Shown here piece by piece: positions 5,503-62,712 of a DNA stretch of 64,000 bases. The stretch comes from an uncultured Clostridia bacterium. GTDB lineage: Bacteria > Bacillota > Clostridia > Oscillospirales > JAAYOS01. The notes under the pieces were generated by a model. It had not been told where the DNA came from and made no database searches. It worked only from the letters and a program-made list of their open reading frames with translations. Position numbers and translations under genes: made by a program. Every line of letters begins with the position of its first letter. The stretch's first letter is position 1. The DNA lies in assembly GCA_947631015.1 (NCBI GenBank), contig CANRJS010000002.1:67726-131725 (forward strand), given 5' to 3'.

Positions 5503-8166
5503 CTACCTCGCGTATTTAATAACAATGCGGAGCATGTCGCGGACGTTCGCGCGAAGGCGTTCGCGGTCGAGGCGTCCGTCGTTCAGCGCGTCGAGGATAG
5601 GCGTGACCTCGCGGTCGTCCATGCTTCCCGGCGCAACCCACGAGAGACCCGCCTGCGCGGGCGCGCCGCCGGCGCATCCGCTCGTGCCGCCCCAGTCGCT
5701 CATGACGTAGCCCTCGAAGCCCCACTCCTCGCGGAGTATGCCTTCAAGCAGGTCCTCGTCCTCGGCGCACCAGACGCCGTTTACGGCGTTGTATCCGGTC
5801 ATGACGGTGTCCGGCATATAGACCTGAAGCGCCTCCTCGAACACCCTGAGATAGACCTCGCGGGCGGTGCGCTCGGTCATTATCGCGTGGTTGGTGTTTC
5901 TCAGATACTCGGCGTTGTTTGCAAAGAAGTGTTTGAAGCTGCACGCCACTCCGCATGACTGGAGCCCGCGCCCCTCCTGCGCCGCCATGCGTCCCGCGAG
6001 GACGGGGTCCTCCGAGAAGTACTCGCTGTGGCGTCCGCAGAGCGGGTTGCGGTGGATGTTCGCCGCCGGCGCGAGGATGCACGGCAGCGCCATGCCTATC
6101 GCCTCCTCCGCTATCGCGCGTCCCTCCTCGTAGGAGAGGCGCTCGTTGAAGGTGGCGCAGACGACGTTCGAGACCGGGAAGCCGATGTTCGCGTCGTTCA
6201 TGTTGAGACCGTTGTTGCCGTCCGAGAAGTAGTACTCCTTCGGCAGTTCGTACTTCTCGAGCGCACCCTCGGCATAGAGCACGCCGGCAAAGCCGCTCTC
6301 TCCGTAGCCCCAGCCGACGCGTCCGCCGGCGGAGGCGCGGCAGAGCTCGTAGTCGCTCATCTGGAGGACGAAGCTGTCAAGCAGCGACGGGTCCTTCACG
6401 AGCATCGGATAGGTGATGACGCTCTCCGGCTTCTCTCCCCTGACCGGGCGAGCCTCCGGCGTGCGCTCGCGCTCGCGGCGGTACGGAAGCTCCTTCGACT
6501 TCACGACGGCGCTGTTCTGCCCCTTCGGATACGTCCCCTCCGGGTCGCGGCGGCTCAGCTCATGCACCTCTATCGGCGGCGTGACGCGATTCTTCACCTT
6601 TGAGACGACTATCGTCTCCGGCACGTCAAAGGACGCGGTCTCGGCGGCCTCCGCCACCGAGCCGCCGAGGTACAGTTTAACCGTGCCCGGCTCGACTATC
6701 CAGCTTGCGGTCTCCTCATCGTAGGAGTCGAAGCCGCGCGCCGTCACTCTGAAATGAAGCGTCTCGCAGGCTCCCGGCGCGAGAGTGTCGGTCTTTGCAA
6801 AGTCCACGAGGCGGCGGCTCGGCTGTTCGAGCTTGCCCTGCGGCAGCTCCGCGAAGAGCAGGACGCTCTCCTTGCCCGGGCGCGAACCGGTGTTCGTCAC
6901 GCGGACGTCCATCTCTACCTCCGCGCCGCAGCTTGCAAACCGCACGCACTCGCGCCTGAAAGTAGTGTAGCTCAGTCCGTGACCGAACGGGAACGCGACG
7001 GGATTTTCGAAGGTCTCGAAGTAGCGGTAGCCGACGTACAGCCCCTCCTCGTAGACCGTGACGTTGAAGTCGCGCTCCGCGCCGAAGCCCATCTGCGGGC
7101 CTCTCGGCGTCGCGCCGACGGCGAGGTTGTAGTTCTCGGAGGACGGTATGTCGCGGTAGTCTATCGCCCACGTGTCCGGCAGACGTCCGGAGGGCGAGAC
7201 CGTGCCGTCAAGTATCTCCGCGAGGGCGCGTCCGCCCGCCATGCCGTTGAGGCCGGTCCAGAGTATCGCGTCCGCCTCGTCCGTCCAGCCCATCTCAATA
7301 GGATAGCCCGTGTTCAGCACGACGACGAGCTTCTCGAATTTCGCGCGAAGCGACTTCATCAGCGCCCGCTCGTCGTCGGAAAGGTAGTACTCGCCGGGTC
7401 TGAGTGCGGTGTCCTCGCTCTCGCCGGTGGGACGGCTTATAACGAACACCGCCGTGCCGCTCGCGGCTCTCGCGCGCTCCACGGCGTCCTCCGGCGGGAG
7501 GACGTCGCGCTCGCCGCGGTAGAAGTCCGCAAGCTCGCGGTTGAGTTTGAGGGACGAATATTTCTCAATGCCCTCGACAAAGCGTATCCCGTAGCGGGGA
7601 TTTATCTTTCCCGCGCCGACGCAGCCGAGGCGGTAGGTCGCAACGCCGCTGCCGAACGCGTTAAGTGCGCTTCCCTTTGCGAGCGGGAGCGTGCCGTCGT
7701 TCTTCAGAAGCACCGCGCCCTCGCGCGCCGCCTGAAGGACGAGCGGGTCGTGCTCGGGGTACACCTCGCCCGGCTCTACCTTCGGAAGCGTGTGCACCGT
7801 CGCCTCGAACGGCGGTATCTCGCTTCCGTCCGCCGCCTTCATGCCCTCGAGGCGAACAGTGTAGTCATGGTCGTACTCCGTAAACCGGCTCCGCACAAAG
7901 ACGCCGAGCATCGTGGTGCCGAACATCTCGCCGCCTACGACCGGCGCGCCGACATACTCGCCGTCAACATAGAAGCGCCCGCCGGCGTCCTCCGCGAGCG
8001 GTCTGAGGCAGACGAGCCCGAGGCAGCCGCTCATGCGGTGATCCATCATGTAGGACTTGCCGTCCACGTCGTCGATGTTGTACACCGGCTCGCTCGAAAG
8101 CGATATGGCGGGCGCGTCCATGCCTCCCGCGTGACTTTCGTGAATGAGCTTCGATGTTTCGTCCAT
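5503..8166 (-). CDS. Glycoside hydrolase family 3 with permuted domain order (GH3_C, Fn3-like, then GH3_N)
   Basis: GAVLLKN, SGRLPDTW, YYEGLYVGYRYF-like and FPFGHGLSYT in the first half; NIHRNPLCGRHSEYFSEDP, KHFFANN and VMSDWG nucleophile near the C-terminus. Confidence 0.9.
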   Translation of the reverse strand: MDETSKLIHESHAGGMDAPAISLSSEPVYNIDDVDGKSYMMDHRMSGCLGLVCLRPLAEDAGGRFYVDGEYVGAPVVGGEMFGTTMLGVFVRSRFTEYDHDYTVRLEGMKAADGSEIPPFEATVHTLPKVEPGEVYPEHDPLVLQAAREGAVLLKNDGTLPLAKGSALNAFGSGVATYRLGCVGAGKINPRYGIRFVEGIEKYSSLKLNRELADFYRGERDVLPPEDAVERARAASGTAVFVISRPTGESEDTALRPGEYYLSDDERALMKSLRAKFEKLVVVLNTGYPIEMGWTDEADAILWTGLNGMAGGRALAEILDGTVSPSGRLPDTWAIDYRDIPSSENYNLAVGATPRGPQMGFGAERDFNVTVYEEGLYVGYRYFETFENPVAFPFGHGLSYTTFRRECVRFASCGAEVEMDVRVTNTGSRPGKESVLLFAELPQGKLEQPSRRLVDFAKTDTLAPGACETLHFRVTARGFDSYDEETASWIVEPGTVKLYLGGSVAEAAETASFDVPETIVVSKVKNRVTPPIEVHELSRRDPEGTYPKGQNSAVVKSKELPYRRERERTPEARPVRGEKPESVITYPMLVKDPSLLDSFVLQMSDYELCRASAGGRVGWGYGESGFAGVLYAEGALEKYELPKEYYFSDGNNGLNMNDANIGFPVSNVVCATFNERLSYEEGRAIAEEAIGMALPCILAPAANIHRNPLCGRHSEYFSEDPVLAGRMAAQEGRGLQSCGVACSFKHFFANNAEYLRNTNHAIMTERTAREVYLRVFEEALQVYMPDTVMTGYNAVNGVWCAEDEDLLEGILREEWGFEGYVMSDWGGTSGCAGGAPAQAGLSWVAPGSMDDREVTPILDALNDGRLDRERLRANVRDMLRIVIKYAR

Positions 8167-12178: not shown

Positions 12179-13091
12179 TTCGCGGGAAATTGGTAAAGGA
12201 GCGGGCAAAGCCCGCTCCTTTACCAATTTCCCGCGAAGCCGCCGGACAGAGCGGAGCCCTGCCGGCGGCAAACGCCGGTCTACGCTCCGCGCTTCGCGCG
12301 AAGCACGACCGGCGAGAGGTGTAAATTTCGCCGTACACGCCGCCGAAATTTACGGATTTGATTTATTTCGCGCCTGACGGCGCGAAAATCTGCGAGGCTT
12401 TTTTGTCGAGACTTGGCGCTTCTCGCCTCGCAGAGTTCGCCGCCGTAGGCGGCAAATAGAGTCAAATCTGTTTTTTCCGGCGGCAATGCGCCCGCCAATA
12501 TATACCGCATCATACCCTATACAGGGCGCATCAGACCTCGGCGCTCCGCGCCGACGTCCCAACATTTTGCAAACCGCAAGGCGTCGGAACAAACTCTTTG
12601 CGCGCAGCGTGCGTCGATTTTCCTCCGAAGGCGGAAAACTCGGCGCGTAGCGTAGCGTTGCTGTCGGCAAGGCTGCGCCTTGTCCGACAGTTTCACTTGA
12701 AATTGCGCCTGCGCAATTTCAAGTGAAAGCCTCGGCGCGAAAGGGTGCGCAGGGCGATTTATCGCCCGAGCACATTTCGCACCGAGACCTCTGCAAAAAA
12801 GCCTCGCAGAGTTTTGCCGCGAAAGCGGCAAAATAAAGTTCAATTCCGTAAATTTCGGCGGCGTGTATGGCGAAATTTACACCTCACGCCGTTCGCGCTT
12901 CGCGCGGCGGAGCCGCTTCCGCGCCTGTTCGCGCGGTTGAAGTTGGCGGCAAAGCCGCCAACTTCGCGCAGGGGCAATTCATTTGCCCCGAGCATGTTAA
13001 TTAAAAGGGCTCCCACGCGGTCGCTGACCGCGTGGGAAATTCAGAGCGAAGAACGGCGCTACCGCCGGCAGAGCTCGGCTCTGTCCGGCGG
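12179..13091. repeat. Family A palindromic mosaic, copy A1 (nested inverted repeats)
   Basis: 28-bp perfect hairpin 12179-12237; ~30-bp outer IR 12239-12268/13062-13091; ~90-bp inner IR 12316-12405/12794-12885; modules shared with 22.8-23.1 kb and 62.2-62.7 kb. Confidence 0.8.
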
Positions 13092-13133
13092 TCTCGCTGA
13101 AAATCGCGTCAGCGATTTTCAGCGAGATAAATA

Positions 13134-22444: not shown

Positions 22445-23090
22445 TGCCGTTTCAAAATGCAAAAAGAGGCGGCTTTCGCCGCCTCGCCGCCTCGGGAACG
22501 CCGCTCCGCGCGCCGCTTCGCGGGCGCGGAACGCGGGCGAGTCGCGGCGGATTTGCAAGTTCGCGCCGGGAATTATGCAAAATGTGGAGACACCGCTGTG
22601 CGCTGTCCGCCGACAGCGCACAGCGCCGGACGGCGGCGCGCAGCACACAAACGGGCAAAACAGTTATGTTTTGCCCGTTTGACGCGCAGAAGCGCGGCGG
22701 CAATGCGCCGCCGCGCTTCTGCAACTCAAACGCAAATGTCCGCCATAGGAGGACAGCAAAGAGGTAATAGTGAATAGCGAATAGCGGAGGTATTTTTCCC
22801 GACGTACACGCCGTCGGGAAAAATGATTCGATTTGTTTCGGCGCTTCGCACCGAAAGCCTCGCAGAGTTTCGCCGCCGAAGGCGGTGAAATAAAGTCAAA
22901 TCTGTTTTTTCCGGCGGCGTGTACGTCGGAAAAAACTCTTTGCGCGGAGCGCGCGTCGATTTTCCGCCGAAGGCGGAAAACTCGGCGCGAAGCGGAGCGA
23001 AAGGCACCGGCAGAGCTTCGCTCTGTCCGGTGCCCTCGGCGCAAAAGGGTACGCAGGGCAATTTATTGCCCGAGCACATTTTGCGCCGAC
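22445..23090. repeat. Family A palindromic mosaic, copy A2
   Basis: Chain of perfect hairpins 22585-22725 and the ~140-bp unit 22857-23000 also found at 12.4-12.65 kb and inverted at 62.25-62.4 kb. Confidence 0.75.
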
Positions 23091-30439: not shown

Positions 30440-30461
30440 TTTAGTAACCGAACAAGGCAAA

Positions 30462-30719
30462 AGGCTTTTGACGGGGAGGAGTACGTCGGTCATCCTCTTT
30501 CAGAGACGGGGCGGTCGGTGCAAGCCCCGAGAGGAACGGCGGAAGGTCGCCCCCGAGCCCCGGAGCCGAAAGCGAAAGCAACTAAGCCCCGGCGGGTTCT
30601 CCCGTTACAGAGAAGCGGCGTTTCTGCGCCGCGTGAGGTGCGCCGCTTCTTTGCGGCGAATTTAGGTGGTACCGCGGTTCATCCGTCCTAAGCTGTGTGC
30701 TTTGGGCGGCTATTTTTTT
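30462..30719 (+). ncRNA. T-box riboswitch (Val specifier)
   Basis: AGAGA/GGTGCAA stem I motifs, GAAG-GTC-G specifier (GUC = Val) at 30546-30548, T-box AATTTAGGTGGTACCGCG at 30659-30676, then terminator and T-run, upstream of valS. Confidence 0.92.
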
Positions 30720-30778
30720 GCCGGGACCGCTCCCGCGCGGGGCGGAGAGGCAAAGTCATCATAAGAGGTGTATATTCT

Positions 30779-33403
30779 ATGGCACGAGAACTCCCGAAGG
30801 CATACGAGCCTCAGGGCGTCGAAAAGCGCATCTACAAGATGTGGCGGGACGGCGGTTACTTCAAGCCGTCCGACGACCCCGAAAAGAAGCCCTTCACCAT
30901 CGTCATACCGCCCCCGAACGTCACGGGTCAGCTCCACATGGGTCACGCCCTCGACGAGACGTGGCAGGACATCCTCGTGCGCTTCAAGCGCATGCAGGGC
31001 TACGCCGCGCTGTGGGTGCCCGGCACCGACCACGCCGGCATCGCCACGCAGATAAAGGTCGAGGAGTATATCCGCGAGAACGAGCACAAGACCCGCTACG
31101 ACTACGGGCGGGACAAGTTCATCGACCTCGTCTGGGACTGGAAGCGCCGCTATGAGGGACGCATCCACGAGCAGCTCGCGGCTCTCGGCTCGAGCTGTGA
31201 CTGGTCGCGCGTCCGCTTCACGATGGACGAGGGACTCTCCCGCGCGGTGCGCGAGGTGTTTGTCAACCTATACAACAAGGGCCTCATCTACAAGGGCAGC
31301 CGCATAATCAACTGGTGCCCGCACTGCCGCACCGCCCTCTCCGATGCGGAGGTCGAGTACAGCGAGCAGAACGGCCACTTCTGGCACATCCGCTACCCCG
31401 TCAAGGGCTCGGACGAGTACGTCACGATAGCCACCACCCGTCCCGAGACGATGCTCGGCGACAGCGCCGTCGCCGTCCACCCGGACGACGAGCGCTACCG
31501 TCACCTCGTCGGCAAGACGCTCATCCTCCCGCTCGTCGGGCGCGAGATACCGGTCATCGCGGACGAGTACGTCGAGAAGGACTTCGGCACCGGCTGCGTG
31601 AAGATCACTCCCTGCCACGACCCGAACGACTTTGAGGTCGGCAAGCGCCATAACCTCGAGGAGATACTTATCCTCGACGAGGACGCGCGCATCATAAACG
31701 GCGGCAAGTACAACGGCATGGACCGCTACGAGGCGCGCGAGGCGATAGTCGCGGACCTCGAGGCCGGCGGATACCTCGTCAAAGTCGAGGAGCACGTCCA
31801 CAACGTCGGCGAGTGCTACCGCTGCGGACACACCGTCGAGCCGATAACCTCCGCTCAGTGGTTCGTGAAGATGGCGCCGCTCGCGAAGCCCGCCATCGAG
31901 GCCGTCGAGAACGGCACGATACAGTTCGTCCCGAAGCGCTTCAACCGCACCTACCTCAACTGGATGGAGGGCATCCACGACTGGTGCATCTCCCGTCAGC
32001 TCTGGTGGGGTCACCGCATCCCCGCGTTCTACTGCGACGAGTGCGGAGAGGTCACCGTCTCTAAGGAGGACATCACCGTCTGCCCGCACTGCGGCGCGCC
32101 CGTCCGGCAGGACGAGGACGTGCTCGACACATGGTTCAGCTCCGCGCTCTGGCCGTTCTCCACGCTCGGCTGGCCGGAGAACACCGAGGACTTCAAGCGC
32201 TTCTTCCCCACCGACGTGCTCGTCACCGGCTACGACATCATATCCTTCTGGGTGAGCCGGATGATATTCTCGTCGCTCGAACACACCGGCCGCGAGCCGT
32301 TCCACACCGTCGCCATTCACGGTCTCGTGCGCGACGCGCAGGGGCGCAAGATGAGCAAGTCGCTCGGCAACGGCGTCGACCCGCTCGAAGTGATAGCAAA
32401 CTACGGCGCGGACGCGCTCCGCGCGTCGCTCGTCATAGGCAACGGCCCCGGAATGGACATGCGATTTACCGACGAGAAGGTCTCAAACATGCGGAACTTC
32501 GCAAACAAGCTCTGGAACGCGAGCCGCTTCGTGCTGATGAACCTCAACACCGAGGATACGACCCTTCCCGCCGACCTCCGTCCGGAGGACAAGTGGATAC
32601 TCTCCAAGCTCAATGCCCTCGCCGCCGACGAGACACGCAACCTCGACCACTACGAGTTCGGCCTTGCCATGCAGAAGATATACGACTTCGTCTGGGGCGA
32701 CTTCTGCGACTGGTATATCGAGCTCACGAAGCCGCGCCTCCAGTCGGAGGACGCGGCGGAGGGTGAGAACGCACAGCGCGTGCTTCTCTACGTCCTCGGC
32801 GAGGCGCTGAAACTGCTGCACCCGTTCATGCCGCACATCACCGAGGAGATCTGGCAGTACCTCCCCGGCCGCGAGACGCCGCTCATAGTTGCCGACTGGC
32901 CGCAGTTCCGCCCGGAGCTCGACTTCTCCGCATACGAGTCGGAGGTCGAGGACGTGATGGACGTGATACGCGCCGTCCGCGCGCGCCGCGCCGAGATGAA
33001 CGTTCCGCCTAGCCGCAAGGCGCACCTGCTGATAGTCGCGGAGAACGACGCCGTGTTCCGCGAGATGGACGCGCTCACGAAGCGCCTCGCATTCGCCTCC
33101 GATATCGAATACGCCTCCTCCGCGCCGGCGGACGTGAAGGGATACACCACCGCCGCCACCCCCGCGGCACACATCTTTATGCCGACGGGCGACCTCGTCG
33201 ATATGCAGAAGGAGCGCGAGCGCCTTTCCGGCGAGCTCGCCAAGGCGAGAAAACAGCTCGAGAGCACCGAGAAGAAGCTCGCAAACGAAGGCTTTGTGTC
33301 GAAGGCTCCGGAGGCCGTCGTCGCGGCGGAGCGTGAGAAGGCCGCAAACGCCTCCGCGCTCATCGCCCGCCTCGAGGAGAGCCTGAAGGCGCTCGAGAAC
33401 TGA
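30779..33403 (+). CDS. valS: Valyl-tRNA synthetase
   Basis: [35 protein letters not shown]-terminal coiled coil; start at ATG 30779. Confidence 0.97.
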
Positions 33404-47672: not shown

Positions 47673-47738
47673 ATATAGACGCTCCTTTCCTGTGTCTGAG
47701 GTCTATCATAGAAGGCAAAGGTCAAAAAACAGACAAAT

Positions 47739-48695
47739 TTGCGGGCGAAGTCCGCAACCGCTTCATTTGCGGAGTGAAGCTCCGCAGTTTAATGTGGAAC
47801 CAAGAGGTTCCGAAGGTTTGCGGGGGCTTCCCCGCAAACCTCCAGCGGGGAAGCCCCGCGGGCATTCGCGGGGCGAGACCCCGCGTCCCTGAGTGAGGCA
47901 GAGCCTCACCGACAGATGTGGGGCATGCACCCCACACTCCTCTAGCGGGGAAGCCCCGCAGGAATCTGCGGGGTCGACCCCGTGTCCCTGGTAGAGCGGA
48001 GCTCTACCGACACCTTTGCGGGGCTGTGCCGCCCCGCACCCCTGCGCTACTTTTTGCTCGCGCAAAAAGTAACCAAAAAGCGCGCTTAAGGGAGAGGGCT
48101 TCGCCCTCTCCCTTAATAATCCCTCTCCTGAATACGACACACAACCGCAACCCACATAACAGGGCACACTCTGTATCCAACAAATCTATCATCCGACCGG
48201 GTGAGTTTCTGGGGGTACAATATCCGACTTTCCCACCGTATTCTACAACATCGAACGATTCCTGCGTAGTAGAAATAAAAATCCGGTCCTACGCTCACAC
48301 TATAAGCGTAATGCAGATACTTCCCCGAGAAAACGGAACTTTCGGTTCTAGTCGAAAGTATAAGCGGGGAAGCTTGTACTAAGCTACGGGCAGACGTCCC
48401 GCGTCGCAGAGACTTTCCGGTCAAGGAAAGAGGGGTACATAGGGGAGAAAACTTTGTTTTCTCCCCTATGTGTGCTTTTTGGTTACTTTTTGCACAAGCA
48501 AAAAGTAACGCAGGGCGCGGGGATGCAATCCCCGCAAAGGTACCGGTGAGGCTCTGCCTCACTCAGGGACGCGGGGTCTCCCCGCGAATGCTCGCGGGGC
48601 TTCCCCGCTAGAGGAGTGGGGATGCAATCCCCGCAAAGTACCCGTGAGGCTCTGCCTCACTCAGGGACGCGGGCTCGCCCCGCACAACCCGCGAA
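47739..48695 (+). mobile_element. Family B element copy 1: REP-like hairpin arrays, ~97-bp inverted arms and conserved ~295-nt core (putative non-autonomous element)
   Basis: Left arm 48032-48128 is an imperfect inverted repeat of right arm 48425-48522; outer units 47844-48012 are mirrored at 48535-48690; whole structure repeated at 53.5-54.5 kb. Confidence 0.7.
48129..48424 (+). ncRNA. Candidate structured RNA (core of element B1)
   Basis: About 85% identical to 53897-54183 with substitutions switching between Watson-Crick and G-U pairs in three hairpins; no conserved ORF. Confidence 0.4.
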
Positions 48696-48824
48696 GTTTT
48701 ACTTCGTCAAAGAAAGTCGGCTTGCTTATAAGCCCATGATATGCTACAATACAGGCATCTACAAAGGACGCGGCGGCCGTCTTCGGTGCGGCACCGACGT
48801 CGATACACGAGAGGAGCGACAAAG

Positions 48825-53508: not shown

Positions 53509-54523
53509 TTGCGGGCGAAGCCCGCCGCACCTTTTTACGGGGCGAGACCCCGCGGCCAAGTGGGCAGAGCCCACACCCATCTAGCGGGGGAGCCCCGCGG
53601 GCAATCTCGGGGCGAGACCCCGCGTCCCTAAGTGAGGCAGAGCCTCACCAACACCTCACGGGGGCGCTGCCCCCGCACCCCCGGCGGGGCTGTGCCGCCC
53701 CGCACCCACTAGCGGGGAAGCCCCGCGGGCATACGCGGGGCGAGACCCCGCGTCCTTGGTAGAGCAGAGCTCTACCGACACCTTCGCGGGGCTGTGCCGC
53801 CCCGCACCCCTGCATTACTTTTTGCTCGCGCAAAAAGTAACCAAAAAGCGCGCTTAAGGGAGAGGGCTTCGCCCTCTCCCTTAATAATCCCTCTCCCGAA
53901 TACGACACACAACCGGAACCCGCATAACAGGACAACACTCTGTATCGAACAAATCTGCCATTCGACCGGGTGAGTTTCTATCCGACTTTCCCTAGGCGGT
54001 CGACAACATCGAACAGTTCCTGCGTAGTAGATATAAAAGTCTGGTCCTACGCTCACACTATAAGCGTAATGCAGAAGCTCACCCGAGAAAACGGAACTTT
54101 CGGTTCCAGTCGAAAGTATAAGCGGGAACGCTTGTACCAAGCTACGGACGGACGTCCCGCGTAGCAGAGACCTTCCGGTCAAAGGAAAGAGGGGTACAAA
54201 GGGGAGAAAACCAAGGTTTTCTCCCCTTTGTGTGCTTTTTGGTTACTTTTTGCACAAGCAATAAAGTAACGCGGGGTGCGGGATGCAATCCCCGCAAGGT
54301 GTCGGTATAGCTCCGCTCTACTAGGGACGCGGGGAAGCCCCGCAGATTCCTGCGGGGCTTCCCCGCTAGAGGGGCGTGAGGCACAGCCCGCAATGGTTCC
54401 GGAACCTCTTGGTTCCGCATACTCCTACGGGGTTTACCCCGTAAAAAAGGTGCGGGGGCTTTGCCCCCGCAAGAATCGTGAGGCTTAGCCCCACATGTGA
54501 AAAGGTTGCGGGCTTCGCCCGCA
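53509..54523 (+). mobile_element. Family B element copy 2 (same orientation as copy 1)
   Basis: Left arm 53800-53896, core 53897-54183, right arm 54184-54282, flanked by the same REP-like units. Confidence 0.7.
53897..54183 (+). ncRNA. Candidate structured RNA (core of element B2)
   Basis: Homolog of 48129-48424; hairpins GGAAC/GTTCC, GCTTG/CAAGC, GGAC/GTCC and long-range GGGTGAGTTTCT/AGAAGCTCACCC. Confidence 0.4.
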
Positions 54524-54525
54524 TG

Positions 54526-55065
54526 TCAGAGCAGCGCTTCTACTTTTGCTTTCACCTCGTCGAGCGAGTCGGTCGGTTCAAAGCGGGCGACGATCTCCCC
54601 GCTGCGGTCAATAAGAAACTTCGTGAAGTTCCACTTTATCTTGCCGTTCGTCTTGTAGTCCTTGTCCATCTTTTTAGCGACGCCCTTCAGTATCAGCCCC
54701 ATCGGGCCGGAAAAACCGCCGAATTCGGTGTTCTCCGTCAGATATTTGTAAAGCGGTATCGCGTTTTCTCCGTTTACGTCGATCTTTGCAAACTGCGGGA
54801 ACGTGATGCCGAACCGTCCCGTGCAGAAGGTGTGGATCTCCTCGTCACTGCCCGGAGCCTGCTCGCCGAACTGATTGCACGGAAAGTCAAGTATCTCCAG
54901 CCCGTCCTTTTCGTGAAGCTCATAGAGCTTCTGAAGGTCGTCATACTGCGGGGTGAAGCCGCACCCGGTCGCCGTGTTTACGATGAGAAGGACCTTGCCC
55001 CTGTAACCGGCAAGTGAGACCTCGCTGCCGTCCTGCGCCCTGACACTGAAATCATAGACGTTCAT
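54526..55065 (-). CDS. Glutathione peroxidase-family protein (Cys-type)
   Basis: IVNTATGCGFTPQY, FPCNQF, KWNFTKF; GGAGG RBS before ATG 55065; TTGACA-17-TATACT promoter at 55113-55141. Confidence 0.93.
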   Translation of the reverse strand: MNVYDFSVRAQDGSEVSLAGYRGKVLLIVNTATGCGFTPQYDDLQKLYELHEKDGLEILDFPCNQFGEQAPGSDEEIHTFCTGRFGITFPQFAKIDVNGENAIPLYKYLTENTEFGGFSGPMGLILKGVAKKMDKDYKTNGKIKWNFTKFLIDRSGEIVARFEPTDSLDEVKAKVEALL

Positions 55066-62165: not shown

Positions 62166-62712
62166 AAACTTTCGCAATAAATAGTTCGAGGGCTTTGCCC
62201 TCGAACTATTTATTGCGAAGCCGACGGACAAGGCAAAGCCTTGCCGTCGGTAGGCGCTCCGCTACGCGCCGAGTTTTCCGCCTTCGGCGGAAAATCGACG
62301 CACGCTCCGCGAGAGGTATTTTCGGCGACGTACACGCCGCCGCCGAAAATGAATTTATTCTATTTTGCACCGTTGGCGCAAAACTCTGCGAGGCTATCGC
62401 TCCGCTATCCTCCTCGCGCCTGCGGCGCTCGACGCACGCTCCGCGAGAGGTGTTTTTCGTTTCAATTCACAGAAAGTCAGGACGTCGGCGCGGAAGCTTT
62501 CCCCAAGCGGCGTTGCACGCCGCTTGGGGATCCCTTTGATAGATATAAATGTAAATGCTCGGGGCAAGCACGAGGGCGCCGACATATTCCTCATTGGAAC
62601 ATATTCAGCCTTCGTGAGCTTTGCCCGCTTTGCGGGCAAAGCCAAACATTGATATAATCGCCCGCGCGATGTTGCCTGCGGCAACTTCAACCTCGCGAAC
62701 TGGCGCGGAAAC
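62166..62712 (-). repeat. Family A palindromic mosaic, copy A3 (inverted relative to A1/A2)
   Basis: 62265-62301 is the reverse complement of the 37-bp module at 22953-22989 and 12611-12647; further modules match 12541-12558, 12660-12690 and 12917-12990. Confidence 0.78.

Follow-up and report, generated by a model that had tools for sequence, protein, structure and literature searches.

Two non-coding stretches of about 1 kb share a common layout within a 64,000-nucleotide window of an uncultured Clostridia genome (contig CANRJS010000002.1, positions 67,726 to 131,725). What kind of element do they represent, and which of its parts is under constraint? The original prediction described a REPIN-like unit built around a conserved 'cargo' core of ~290 nt. 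The two same-orientation copies that it placed at 47739–48695 and 53509–54523 were confirmed, with the right boundary of copy 1 shifted to about 48706. In both copies, mirrored arrays of GC-rich REP-like hairpins enclose inverted arms, and the arms in turn enclose an asymmetric core of ~320 nt. The arms carry a motif that we call S1, which reads x – T-run – linker – TACTTTTTGC-N4-GCAAAAAGTA, where x is a segment of 4–7 nt just beyond the upstream T-run that base-pairs with the hairpin apex (x′). The features of the two copies are as follows.

Copy 1:
47739–48038, left outer array of 10 small GC-rich REP-like hairpins (hairpin list)
47839–47891 and 47939–47991, tandemly duplicated module of ~100 nt in the left array (direct-repeat family D4)
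48040–48085, plus strand, left arm, S1 module in its A-rich version
48048–48071, plus strand, left S1 hairpin, TACTTTTTGC-TCGC-GCAAAAAGTA
48072–48080, plus strand, left-arm tail, AC-CAAAAAG
48081–48084, plus strand, left x, CGCG, complementary to the hairpin apex (C-GCG)
48086–48116, left inner GC hairpin with a 14-bp stem, TTAAGGGAGAGGGC-ttc-GCCCTCTCCCTTAA, invariant in all copies
48117–48436, plus strand, asymmetric core of ~320 nt, non-coding and modular
48437–48471, right inner GC hairpin with a 16-bp stem
48471–48515, plus strand, right arm, S1 module in its T-rich version
48471–48474, plus strand, right x, TGTG, followed by C (48475), T5 (48476–48480) and the linker GGT
48484–48507, plus strand, right S1 hairpin, TACTTTTTGC-ACAA-GCAAAAAGTA, apex CACA pairing with x
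48517–48706, right outer REP-like array, mirror of the left array

Copy 2:
53509–53805, left outer REP-like array (hairpin list, families D4 and D6)
53808–53884, plus strand, left arm and left inner GC hairpin
53816–53839, plus strand, left S1 hairpin, with x = CGCG; left inner GC hairpin at 53854–53884
53885–54195, plus strand, core, with an 11-nt deletion relative to the core of copy 1
54196–54276, plus strand, right inner GC hairpin (54196–54231) and decayed right arm
54244–54268, plus strand, right S1 hairpin with a 1-nt insertion, GCAATAAAGTA, no match at up to 3 substitutions
54277–54523, right outer REP-like array

When 48020–48530 was aligned with 53788–54298, mean column identity was 94%. 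The arms are true inverted repeats of 56–63 nt that extend beyond the hairpin: in copy 1, 48040–48095 pairs with 48460–48515 (56 nt, 88% complementary), and in copy 2, 53801–53863 pairs with 54220–54282. Each flank holds 10–12 small GC-rich hairpins in mirrored order, and the mirroring of the two outer arrays of copy 1 is seen in the inverted pairs I2, I10 and I13. The order of these flanking modules recurs around copies in other species. The view of a symmetric, non-coding, multi-copy element with inverted hairpin-bearing arms inside REP-like arrays was borne out. With up to 3 mismatches allowed, the window contains 3 matches to the arm hairpin pattern, against 0 in 100 shuffles; the fourth arm, on the right of copy 2, carries its 1-nt insertion at 54258–54268. 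The left arms of the two copies had been predicted to differ at about 2 bases, and they do differ at 2 (GC versus AT, just 5′ of the hairpin), after which 81 nt are invariant. The compensatory change that had been reported for the right inner hairpin was confirmed (ACATAGGGG...CCCCTATGT versus ACAAAGGGG...CCCCTTTGT).

The arms hold a second layer of pairing that the original prediction missed. REP-like repeats are usually described as plain hairpins. The S1 hairpin is A/T-rich and 10–13 bp long, with a second copy of its T-run ~11 nt upstream, and unlike a plain REP hairpin it shows covariation between its loop and its flank, in a motif common to several phyla. A MAFFT alignment of S1 modules mis-registers x because linker length varies, and we therefore used anchored counts with permutations instead. 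A perfect 4-nt complement between x and the apex was found in 31 of 60 distinct (upstream, apex) combinations, against a permutation mean of 4.9 and maximum of 13 (5,000 permutations). The pairing comprises about 12 independent Watson–Crick pair types, and longer complements are found in isolates (TTGACC/GGTCAA, CTTGA/TCAAG and GAGAGAT/ATCTCTC). A single element can use different x/x′ sequences in its two arms (CGCG in one, TGTG/CACA in the other), each matched within its own arm. The lengths of the upstream and stem T-runs also match, being 4/4 in 13 unique motifs, 5/5 in 63 and 6/6 in 4, and five or more different stem sequences are represented among the 4/4 motifs. The foot pair of the hairpin co-varies as well; it is Watson–Crick in 96 of 103 unique motifs and occurs as T-A, C-G, G-C or A-T, and the position after GTA is variable. 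A flank that co-varies with its own loop, together with T-runs that change length jointly, suggests that selection acts on a higher-order structure of the single strand.

The geometry of S1 is consistent with an H-type pseudoknot, formed in DNA or RNA, that includes T.A-T triples. Triple-helix pseudoknots of this type are found in telomerase RNA, in the SAM-II and preQ1-II riboswitches and in ENE-type U.A-U clamps. In its proposed fold, S1 resembles them in having a stem 1, a U/T-rich loop 1, a U:A stem 2 and no inter-stem loop, and its loop 1 is about as long as its stem 2. Its A-rich strand recalls the preQ1-I riboswitch, with an A-rich loop 3 after the hairpin and a second stem of 4–7 bp with the hairpin loop. 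S1 gave no sequence or covariance-model match to any of the Rfam families for these structures; it lacks the consistent gene association of a riboswitch, and it lies in repeats and in both orientations. The bases that flank the T-runs follow a direct repeat, and the mirror repeat needed for classical H-DNA is absent. It is possible, and we propose it only tentatively, that S1 is a previously undescribed structured nucleic-acid module found across phyla: a hairpin clamped by a pseudoknot of 4–7 Watson–Crick loop pairs and by T.A-T (U.A-U) triples, which may act as the single-stranded DNA recognition structure of a mobilising enzyme or as an RNA 3′-end block, and may have given rise to nested-palindromic repeat families, each specific to a lineage, in Bacillota, Bacteroidota, Campylobacterota and Pseudomonadota. 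If so, bacteria would contain a naturally occurring triplex pseudoknot, in their DNA or RNA, that is available in cultured carriers. The CTTTTTG boxes of the arm number two direct and one inverted and lie about one helical turn apart; this repetition may instead come from several binding sites of a single protein.

REP/BIME mosaics and REPINs consist of short GC-rich extragenic hairpins in alternating orientation with conserved linkers (PMC3116915, PMC3733652). The element resembles them in its inverted doublets, which behave as one repeated unit (inverted arms and outer hairpins recur together at the two window loci and in three other species), in its high copy number, in being strictly intergenic without a coding gene, and in a hairpin foot that is often CTAC...GTAG. 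The REPIN-like label held for the inverted hairpin arms as one unit, and membership of the REPIN class was not supported. REPINs are mobilised by RAYT (HUH Y1) transposases, whose genes are typically single-copy with the same REPs on either side, and no RAYT gene was found among open reading frames within 2.5 kb of S1 at about 230 loci. The element also differs from REPINs in its spacer, which is ~320 nt with two extra hairpins rather than tens of nucleotides (~410 nt from one S1 hairpin to the other, compared with about 100 nt for a REPIN overall), and in lacking their conserved unpaired GTAG/CGTC tag, its foot pair instead varying and co-varying. It differs from REPs in the A/T-rich arm hairpin, and the upstream T-run and loop-pairing segment are not described for REPs in PMC3116915 or PMC3733652.

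Two other groups of mobile sequences offer partial likenesses. Bacterial MITEs (Correia/NEMIS, RUP, ERIC and bcr1) are sub-kilobase, intergenic sequences with terminal inverted repeats and possible terminator activity. The element is likewise small, intergenic, bounded by inverted repeats and devoid of a transposase; it departs from MITEs in that its arms show intra-strand covariation and its termini grade into REP-like arrays. Neither a target-site duplication nor a parent insertion sequence was found. In IS608, the enzyme reads a single-stranded DNA hairpin, and each end has its own pairing between a 4-nt guide and a 4-nt cleavage site; the separate x/x′ pairs of the two arms resemble this per-end pairing. 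The guide of IS608 lies at the hairpin foot and its cleavage site outside the hairpin, whereas the pairing partners in the element are the hairpin apex and the segment beyond the T-run. Arms that are true inverted repeats beyond the hairpin further distinguish the element from the palindrome-associated transposable elements (PATEs) of the IS200/IS605 family (overview in PMC6006769). PATEs have subterminal hairpins on one strand, ends that lack inverted repeats, and a specific tetranucleotide as target; no TnpA or TnpB gene was seen with the element.

On balance, we consider it about an even call that the element belongs, as a lineage-specific form, to a broad class of intergenic repeats that are non-autonomous and nested-palindromic and that are akin to REP/BIME mosaics, REPINs and MITEs. 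The two S1 arms would be the constrained and presumably active parts. As a single strand, DNA or RNA, S1 would fold as an H-type pseudoknot through x/x′ pairing, with the upstream T-run in the major groove of the T:A stem forming T.A-T or U.A-U triples, and with the A-run in the minor groove on the complementary strand. Two inverted S1 modules, each backed by a strong GC hairpin, bracket the ~320-nt spacer. The whole unit, within its mirrored REP-like arrays, has multiplied and occupies several intergenic sites, both in this genome and in three related rabbit-gut Clostridia species; copying would act in trans, through an enzyme that reads the single-stranded structure (HUH/RAYT-like or other). 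Judged from sequence, the element is of the REP/REPIN/MITE kind, and S1 gives a defined motif with which to look for the enzyme behind the copying of such elements.

We screened the neighbourhood of S1 by clustering open reading frames, running Pfam on the recurrent clusters and applying a crude HUH-Y motif screen. S1 loci had been collected by exact match to the 20-nt hairpin, a choice that in part builds in the identity of these 20 nt across phyla. Across about 230 loci, no transposase recurred within 2.5 kb; the recurrent neighbours were only housekeeping families, Helicobacter outer-membrane proteins and Elusimicrobia type IV pilins. No full-length insertion sequence with matching ends was found at these loci or in plasmid or phage collections, in which BLASTN with the element as query gave no match. 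Plasmid pFA12 of Fulvitalea carries two S1 modules and no annotated transposase. A search for autonomous versions with the same arms had been proposed, and arm pairs 1–4 kb apart (L010, L071 and L189) were considered as candidates. Between the paired arms lie housekeeping genes (for an outer-membrane protein, an HTH protein or pyrE/pyrB/pyrI), so each pair is two separate modules. The empty alleles and exact ends that the prediction called for were not encountered: exact-protein look-ups of neighbour genes and synteny with the rabbit-gut MAG loci yielded no empty allele, and the flanks of 11 copies showed no target-site duplication or sharp end. Similarity fades through variable REP-like modules, so the termini cannot be defined, and mobility can accordingly be read only from the dispersed copies.

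The unit might instead be an ordinary MITE, an internally deleted DDE insertion sequence in which the arms and CTTTTTG boxes are duplex binding sites for a transposase. The inverted arms of 56–63 nt, a size of ~0.5–1 kb and the lack of an open reading frame all suit this origin, as do degenerate ACTTTC/GAAAGT boxes that are repeated inside the core (by eye), and all three CTTTTTG boxes change length together (T4, T5, T6), as if one protein reads them. Duplex binding, however, leaves unexplained both the complementarity of x and apex in about 12 versions and the covariation of the foot pair; no parent insertion sequence or target-site duplication emerged from the searches above, and S1 modules are commonly single. 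We regard a MITE of this ordinary type as unlikely.

Related copies lie at other loci in three related rabbit-gut Clostridia MAG species, and S1 recurs more widely, in Oscillospiraceae, Helicobacteraceae, Bacteroidota and Proteobacteria, including complete isolate genomes. Cultured carriers are Fulvitalea axinellae DSM 100852, Aureibacter tunicatorum NBRC 107587, Parabacteroides distasonis and Diaphorobacter sp. HDW4B. Scans of viral contigs with the arm and core patterns found none, and a shorter arm pattern matched once, in a 123-kb contig. Rfam had no match at the S1 sites of seven other loci, and a literature search for the motif as a string returned nothing relevant. Matches in Elusimicrobia and Paceibacterota lack x/x′ complementarity and were set aside as probably unrelated hairpins.

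REP sequences in E. coli end or stabilise the transcripts of neighbouring genes, and the element could in the same way be a domesticated insulator or terminator cassette, kept for its effect on neighbouring transcripts and spread by recombination or gene conversion between hairpin arrays rather than by transposition. Its placement offers some encouragement: both window copies are strictly intergenic; the outermost right hairpin of copy 2 abuts the stop codon of its upstream gene, for a glutathione peroxidase, at 54526; among low-GC genomes, the upstream gene has the T-rich strand of S1 as its sense strand in 69 cases versus 28, and S1 is rare between divergent genes (4 of 138); in Parabacteroides, S1 lies directly 3′ of the HU gene; and one half-element persists at an orthologous site in two species. 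However, copy 1 sits between divergently transcribed genes, where a terminator role is not obvious, no T-run follows the S1 hairpin in either orientation, and the S1 of Aureibacter interrupts a cas operon at the junction of cas7d and cas5d. The orientation bias could be explained equally well by insertion that favours one strand. A cassette of this kind seems to us improbable.

If the arms are the active parts, what is the core? The 'conserved cargo' of the original prediction is the part of the element that is least conserved and evolves fastest. In 10 copies, drawn from 4 species, mean pairwise identity was 99% for the S1 hairpin, 93% for the rest of the arms and 80.5% for the core, and pairwise values ranged from 69 to 91% in the core compared with 89–100% in the arms. 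Between the cores of copies 1 and 2, blastn gives an identity of 86% (89% when ungapped aligned columns are counted), and the two differ by substitutions and by indels of 11, 1 and 2 nt. BLASTN and profile searches found relatives, with core homologues limited to the window genome and the three rabbit-gut Clostridia MAG species. A metagenome scan with a degenerate 24-base core pattern gave no match, and an nhmmer profile of the core run over all 240 loci returned known relatives only, leaving cores of the L009 type undetected. The absence of a transposase, reverse transcriptase or conserved open reading frame was upheld; no open frame is common to 11 copies, and no conserved peptide was found in the core. 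Each copy has open frames of its own, and the indel lengths are not divisible by 3, which also speaks against a decayed gene fragment.

The core might nevertheless be a structured non-coding RNA gene of ~300–400 nt, duplicated rather than mobile, with the arms and inner GC hairpins serving as outward-facing terminators or as protection of the RNA 3′ end. The right inner hairpin and T-run, read outward, score as an intrinsic-terminator-like site (48435–48473, plus strand, then GCTTTTTGGT), and the unit as a whole has a much better fold than shuffled sequence (z = −13), albeit one dominated by the arms. The core also contains conserved islands (TTCCTGCGTAGTAGA, CTATAAGCGTAATGCAGA, CTTTCGGTTC and GAAAGAGGGGT) and invariant islands of 10–18 nt; the invariant islands TTCCTGCGT.GTAGA, GCGTAATG.AGA, CTTTCGGTTC and GAAAGAGGGGT would suit such a gene. 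A simple consensus scan, however, placed no promoter-like site inside the element and one weak site outside it (47672–47644, minus strand), and by eye a TTGACC box on the minus strand has no conserved −10 after it; the core has no conserved promoter. Rfam release 15 at gathering thresholds identified only a T-box leader in the whole window (30458–30693), the core had no match, and at E values up to 10 nothing credible appeared over 47700–48720. There is no structural covariation in the core: the RNAalifold consensus of 10 cores had a covariation term of +2.58, with compensatory change in 4 of 65 pairs. For a sequence that evolves faster than its arms, is truncated at will and gives way to unrelated sequence in a sister family, we see only a slim chance of an RNA gene.

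The reading that we prefer, a repeat driven by its arms, leaves the core as a carried-along spacer that may drift close to neutrally, a view to which we give the same even weight as to the explanation as a whole. The 'conserved passenger' interpretation is weakened by the core being least conserved, by its narrow range, by the lack of covariation and by half-elements (arm plus partial core) that stand alone upstream of genes and stop at a recurrent breakpoint, which follows GGGTGAGTTTCT (~48210). For all that it catches the eye, the cargo probably matters least among the parts of the element and may have no function of its own, although the invariant islands are hard to square with pure neutrality. 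The half-element pair at the orthologous site has diverged by ~10% (by eye), compared with 13.6% at third codon positions of the adjacent gene. In the sister family (L009 type), the arms and layout are the same and the core is not alignable; homology of the two cores through a common AAGCGTAATGC was considered and dropped, as AAGCGTAATGC is not conserved within that family. Short-read contigs of the same species end inside both window copies, in keeping with their multi-copy status, and every copy of such an element interrupts the short-read assembly of gut Clostridia.

The element named in the original prediction is real: the window holds two same-orientation copies with one layout. Each runs from an outer array of small GC-rich hairpins (10-12 on each side) through an arm, a strong GC hairpin (stem of 14 or 16 bp) on the inner side of the arm and an asymmetric core of ~320 nt, after which the order of the parts is mirrored.

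47739-48706, element copy 1, same orientation as copy 2; neighbours are a gene for a 698-aa protein without Pfam match (minus) and a CMD-family gene (plus)
53509-54523, element copy 2, same orientation as copy 1; neighbours are DegV and glutathione peroxidase genes (both minus)

Given the strands of these neighbours, the genes around copy 1 diverge from each other, and copy 2 is flanked by the end of one gene and the start of the next. The copies are 94% identical in an alignment of the central ~510 nt, and substitutions and three indels (11, 1 and 2 nt) separate their cores. The left arms, described as nearly identical, differ at two adjacent bases and then match over 81 nt, and the compensatory change proposed for the right inner hairpin was borne out by comparison of the copies. 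In both copies the inverted arms are 56-63 nt long and 76-88% complementary, and each contains a perfect 10-bp hairpin, TACTTTTTGC-N4-GCAAAAAGTA, a pattern that 100 shuffled versions of the window did not contain. A 1-nt insertion disrupts the right arm of copy 2.

To find relatives, we scanned species-representative genomes with the arm hairpin pattern, and then conducted BLAST and profile searches with the core. In these searches, the core was confined to three 'uncultured Clostridia' MAG species from rabbit gut (CANPWY, CANQDU and CANRIN), in each of which several copies occur, none at a locus related to those of the window. Scanning metagenomes with a degenerate core pattern yielded nothing, and no match to the element was found in plasmid and phage collections. 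As predicted, no ORF is conserved: the 11 copies compared have no reading frame in common. In short-read assemblies of the same species, a 5.2-kb contig terminates within both copies; dispersed repeats usually leave this signature, which indicates a multi-copy element.

The core had been viewed as a conserved passenger, but it is the least constrained part of the element. Mean pairwise identity among 10 copies is 80.5% for the core (range 69-91%), compared with 93% for the arms outside the hairpin, a figure free of bias from the way in which loci were found, and 99% for the arm hairpins. A consensus fold of the 10 cores gained nothing from covariation, and no promoter-like sites were found inside the element. 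The arms are the constrained part, and the supposed passenger is probably a drifting spacer. It does contain some islands of 10-18 nt that are invariant among copies, which a drifting spacer does not readily explain. By eye, four or five ACTTTC/GAAAGT boxes can be seen in the core at 48211-48430 (CCGACTTTCCC, GGAACTTTCGG, TCGAAAGTA, GAGACTTTCCGG and GGAAAGAGG), faintly echoing TACTTTTTG of the arms. In a sister family from human-gut Oscillospiraceae (loci L009, L087, L049 and L066), the arms, inner hairpins and length are as in the window element; the core of this family does not align to that of the window family and was undetected by the core profile. The corresponding unit in a Chitinophagales MAG is a near-perfect foldback of ~700 nt.

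The core is modular, and half-elements consisting of the left arm, the inner hairpin and 100-225 nt of core occur alone, often ending after GGGTGAGTTTCT. One such half-element, with ~100-180 nt of core, is found at the same site in two MAG species (L105 ~1800-2005 and L079 ~6400-6630, the latter with an internal duplication of ~60 nt), where it abuts, on the upstream side, the RBS and ATG of the gene for an orthologous response regulator of the OmpR type; this position suggests that it may provide the 5' leader of the gene. Its divergence, read by eye from the alignment, is roughly 10%, versus 13.6% at third codon positions of the response regulator. In a related family, a half-element lies upstream of pyrE.

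The feature that deserves follow-up is the arm motif, which we call S1: it crosses phyla, and both its loop and flank and its run lengths covary. We collected more than 110 loci from the genome scan and 120 more from a second metagenome scan. In one orientation S1 reads x(4-7 nt)-[C]-T-run-G(G/C)(N)-TAC-T-run-GC-loop-GC-A-run-GTA-(N'), in which x is the reverse complement of the hairpin apex (closing base plus loop; x'). The x/x' versions include CGCG, TGTG/CACA, CGTG/CACG, CCTG/CAGG, GGCG/CGCC and AAAG/CTTT, and further CGAT/ATCG, CGCA/TGCG, TGAG/CTCA, GCGG/CCGC, CGCC/GGCG and TGGC/GCCA. Perfect x/x' 4-mers were present in 31 of 60 distinct combinations, whereas 5000 permutations gave 4.9 on average and 13 at most; where the upstream run has six Ts, the register moves by one base. 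The upstream T-run also matches the stem T-run in length. Among unique motifs, 4/4 (n=13, with at least 5 different stem sequences), 5/5 (n=63) and 6/6 (n=4) were observed, with 23 unequal cases that were mainly 6/5. At the hairpin foot, 96 of 103 unique motifs have a Watson-Crick pair N/N', and all four pair types are used. The arms of one window element carry different x/x' pairs, each matched inside its own arm, and pairing is therefore intra-arm.

These features suggest a triplex or pseudoknot, in DNA or RNA. The x segment would pair antiparallel with the apex, and the adjacent T-run would face the stem T-run and not the A-run, so that it would run parallel with the purine strand of the stem and antiparallel to its pyrimidine strand, as in a pyrimidine-motif triplex. 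The predicted H-type pseudoknot would have x and the apex as stem 1, the T-run and linker as loop 1 (7-8 nt) and TAC-T5 with A5-GTA as stem 2 (8 bp), with 0 nt between the stems and a loop 3 of 2-3 nt. Loop 1 would be as long as stem 2, as in triple-helix pseudoknots in which loop bases and pairs are in one-to-one contact. The mirror fold could form on the complementary strand: a hairpin, an A-rich loop 3 of 7-9 nt that could occupy the minor groove, and a second stem formed with the hairpin loop. Wobble pairs favour one strand in three cases and the other in two, which does not decide the strand. No Rfam family covers S1, and the REP papers PMC3733652 and PMC4690160 do not describe the motif.

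Carriers of S1 include Oscillospiraceae and other Clostridia from the gut of humans, rabbits, chickens and termites, as well as three Helicobacteraceae MAGs and one MAG each of Chitinophagales, Actinobacillus and Rudaea. Using BLAST against complete plasmid and chromid records of isolates, we identified further carriers: Diaphorobacter sp. HDW4B (x/x' CGCG), Fulvitalea axinellae (AGAT/ATCT and GAGAGAT/ATCTCTC), Aureibacter tunicatorum (CTTGA/TCAAG) and Parabacteroides distasonis (TTGACC/GGTCAA, with 4-T runs). On A. tunicatorum pAT6 (L240 2501-2533), S1 lies in the 244-nt gap from cas7d to cas5d in a type I-D CRISPR-Cas operon, on the strand of the genes. F. axinellae pFA12 (L241 19665 and 37810) has no annotated transposase and carries two S1 modules that have a ~120-nt upstream module in common; one of them lies between a Y-family polymerase gene and umuD. 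In Helicobacteraceae MAGs (for example, L004, L010, L014 and L048), S1 sits among other small hairpin repeats, some of which start with CGTC (CGTCATACTGAG... and CGTCATTGCGAG...) and are similar to the CGTC-tagged REP superfamily, which has no known transposase (PMC3733652). Matches in Elusimicrobia and Paceibacterota lack x/x' pairing and are probably unrelated hairpins, those of the Elusimicrobia type for this reason probably belonging to a different element. In the Elusimicrobia-type contigs (L015, L043, L076, L135, L147, L165, L204, L211 and L214), ~300 nt separate the same 20-nt hairpin from a gene resembling those of type IV pilins, whose L076 representative has N_methyl/ComP_DUS Pfam matches.

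The element was originally read as a REPIN-like non-autonomous element. Its nested-palindromic, non-autonomous character stands, but its membership of the REPIN-RAYT class is unsupported, as it lacks the short spacer and conserved GTAG tag of that class; it is best filed as a nested-palindromic non-autonomous repeat of the REP/BIME/REPIN/MITE kind. No transposase, RAYT or other, recurs within 2.5 kb of S1 at ~230 loci, no empty sites of the element were found, and its ends grade into variable REP-like modules, where no duplication could be seen. Arm pairs that are far apart enclose ordinary genes. In low-GC genomes, the upstream gene has the T-rich S1 strand as its sense strand in 69 versus 28 cases, and S1 is rare between divergent genes; these patterns fit insertion with a strand bias, a function at the 3' ends of RNAs or selection against promoter regions.

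The window contains a second, unrelated family of nested-palindromic intergenic repeats, with inverted pairs of 67 nt (93%) and 28 nt (100%) and with direct copies that match at 89-97%. Similar sequence, GCCTCGCAGAGTT..., adjoins a half-element in a rabbit-gut MAG locus (L093, ~6900-7100). Searching Rfam returned nothing for the element, and the only match in the window was a T-box leader elsewhere, directly upstream of a 902-aa ORF that presumably encodes an aminoacyl-tRNA synthetase.

12179-13104, second repeat family
22793-23089, second repeat family, partial copy
62216-62394, second repeat family, partial copy
30458-30693, plus strand, T-box leader (RF00230, 118.8 bits against a threshold of 93)
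30695-33403, 902-aa ORF
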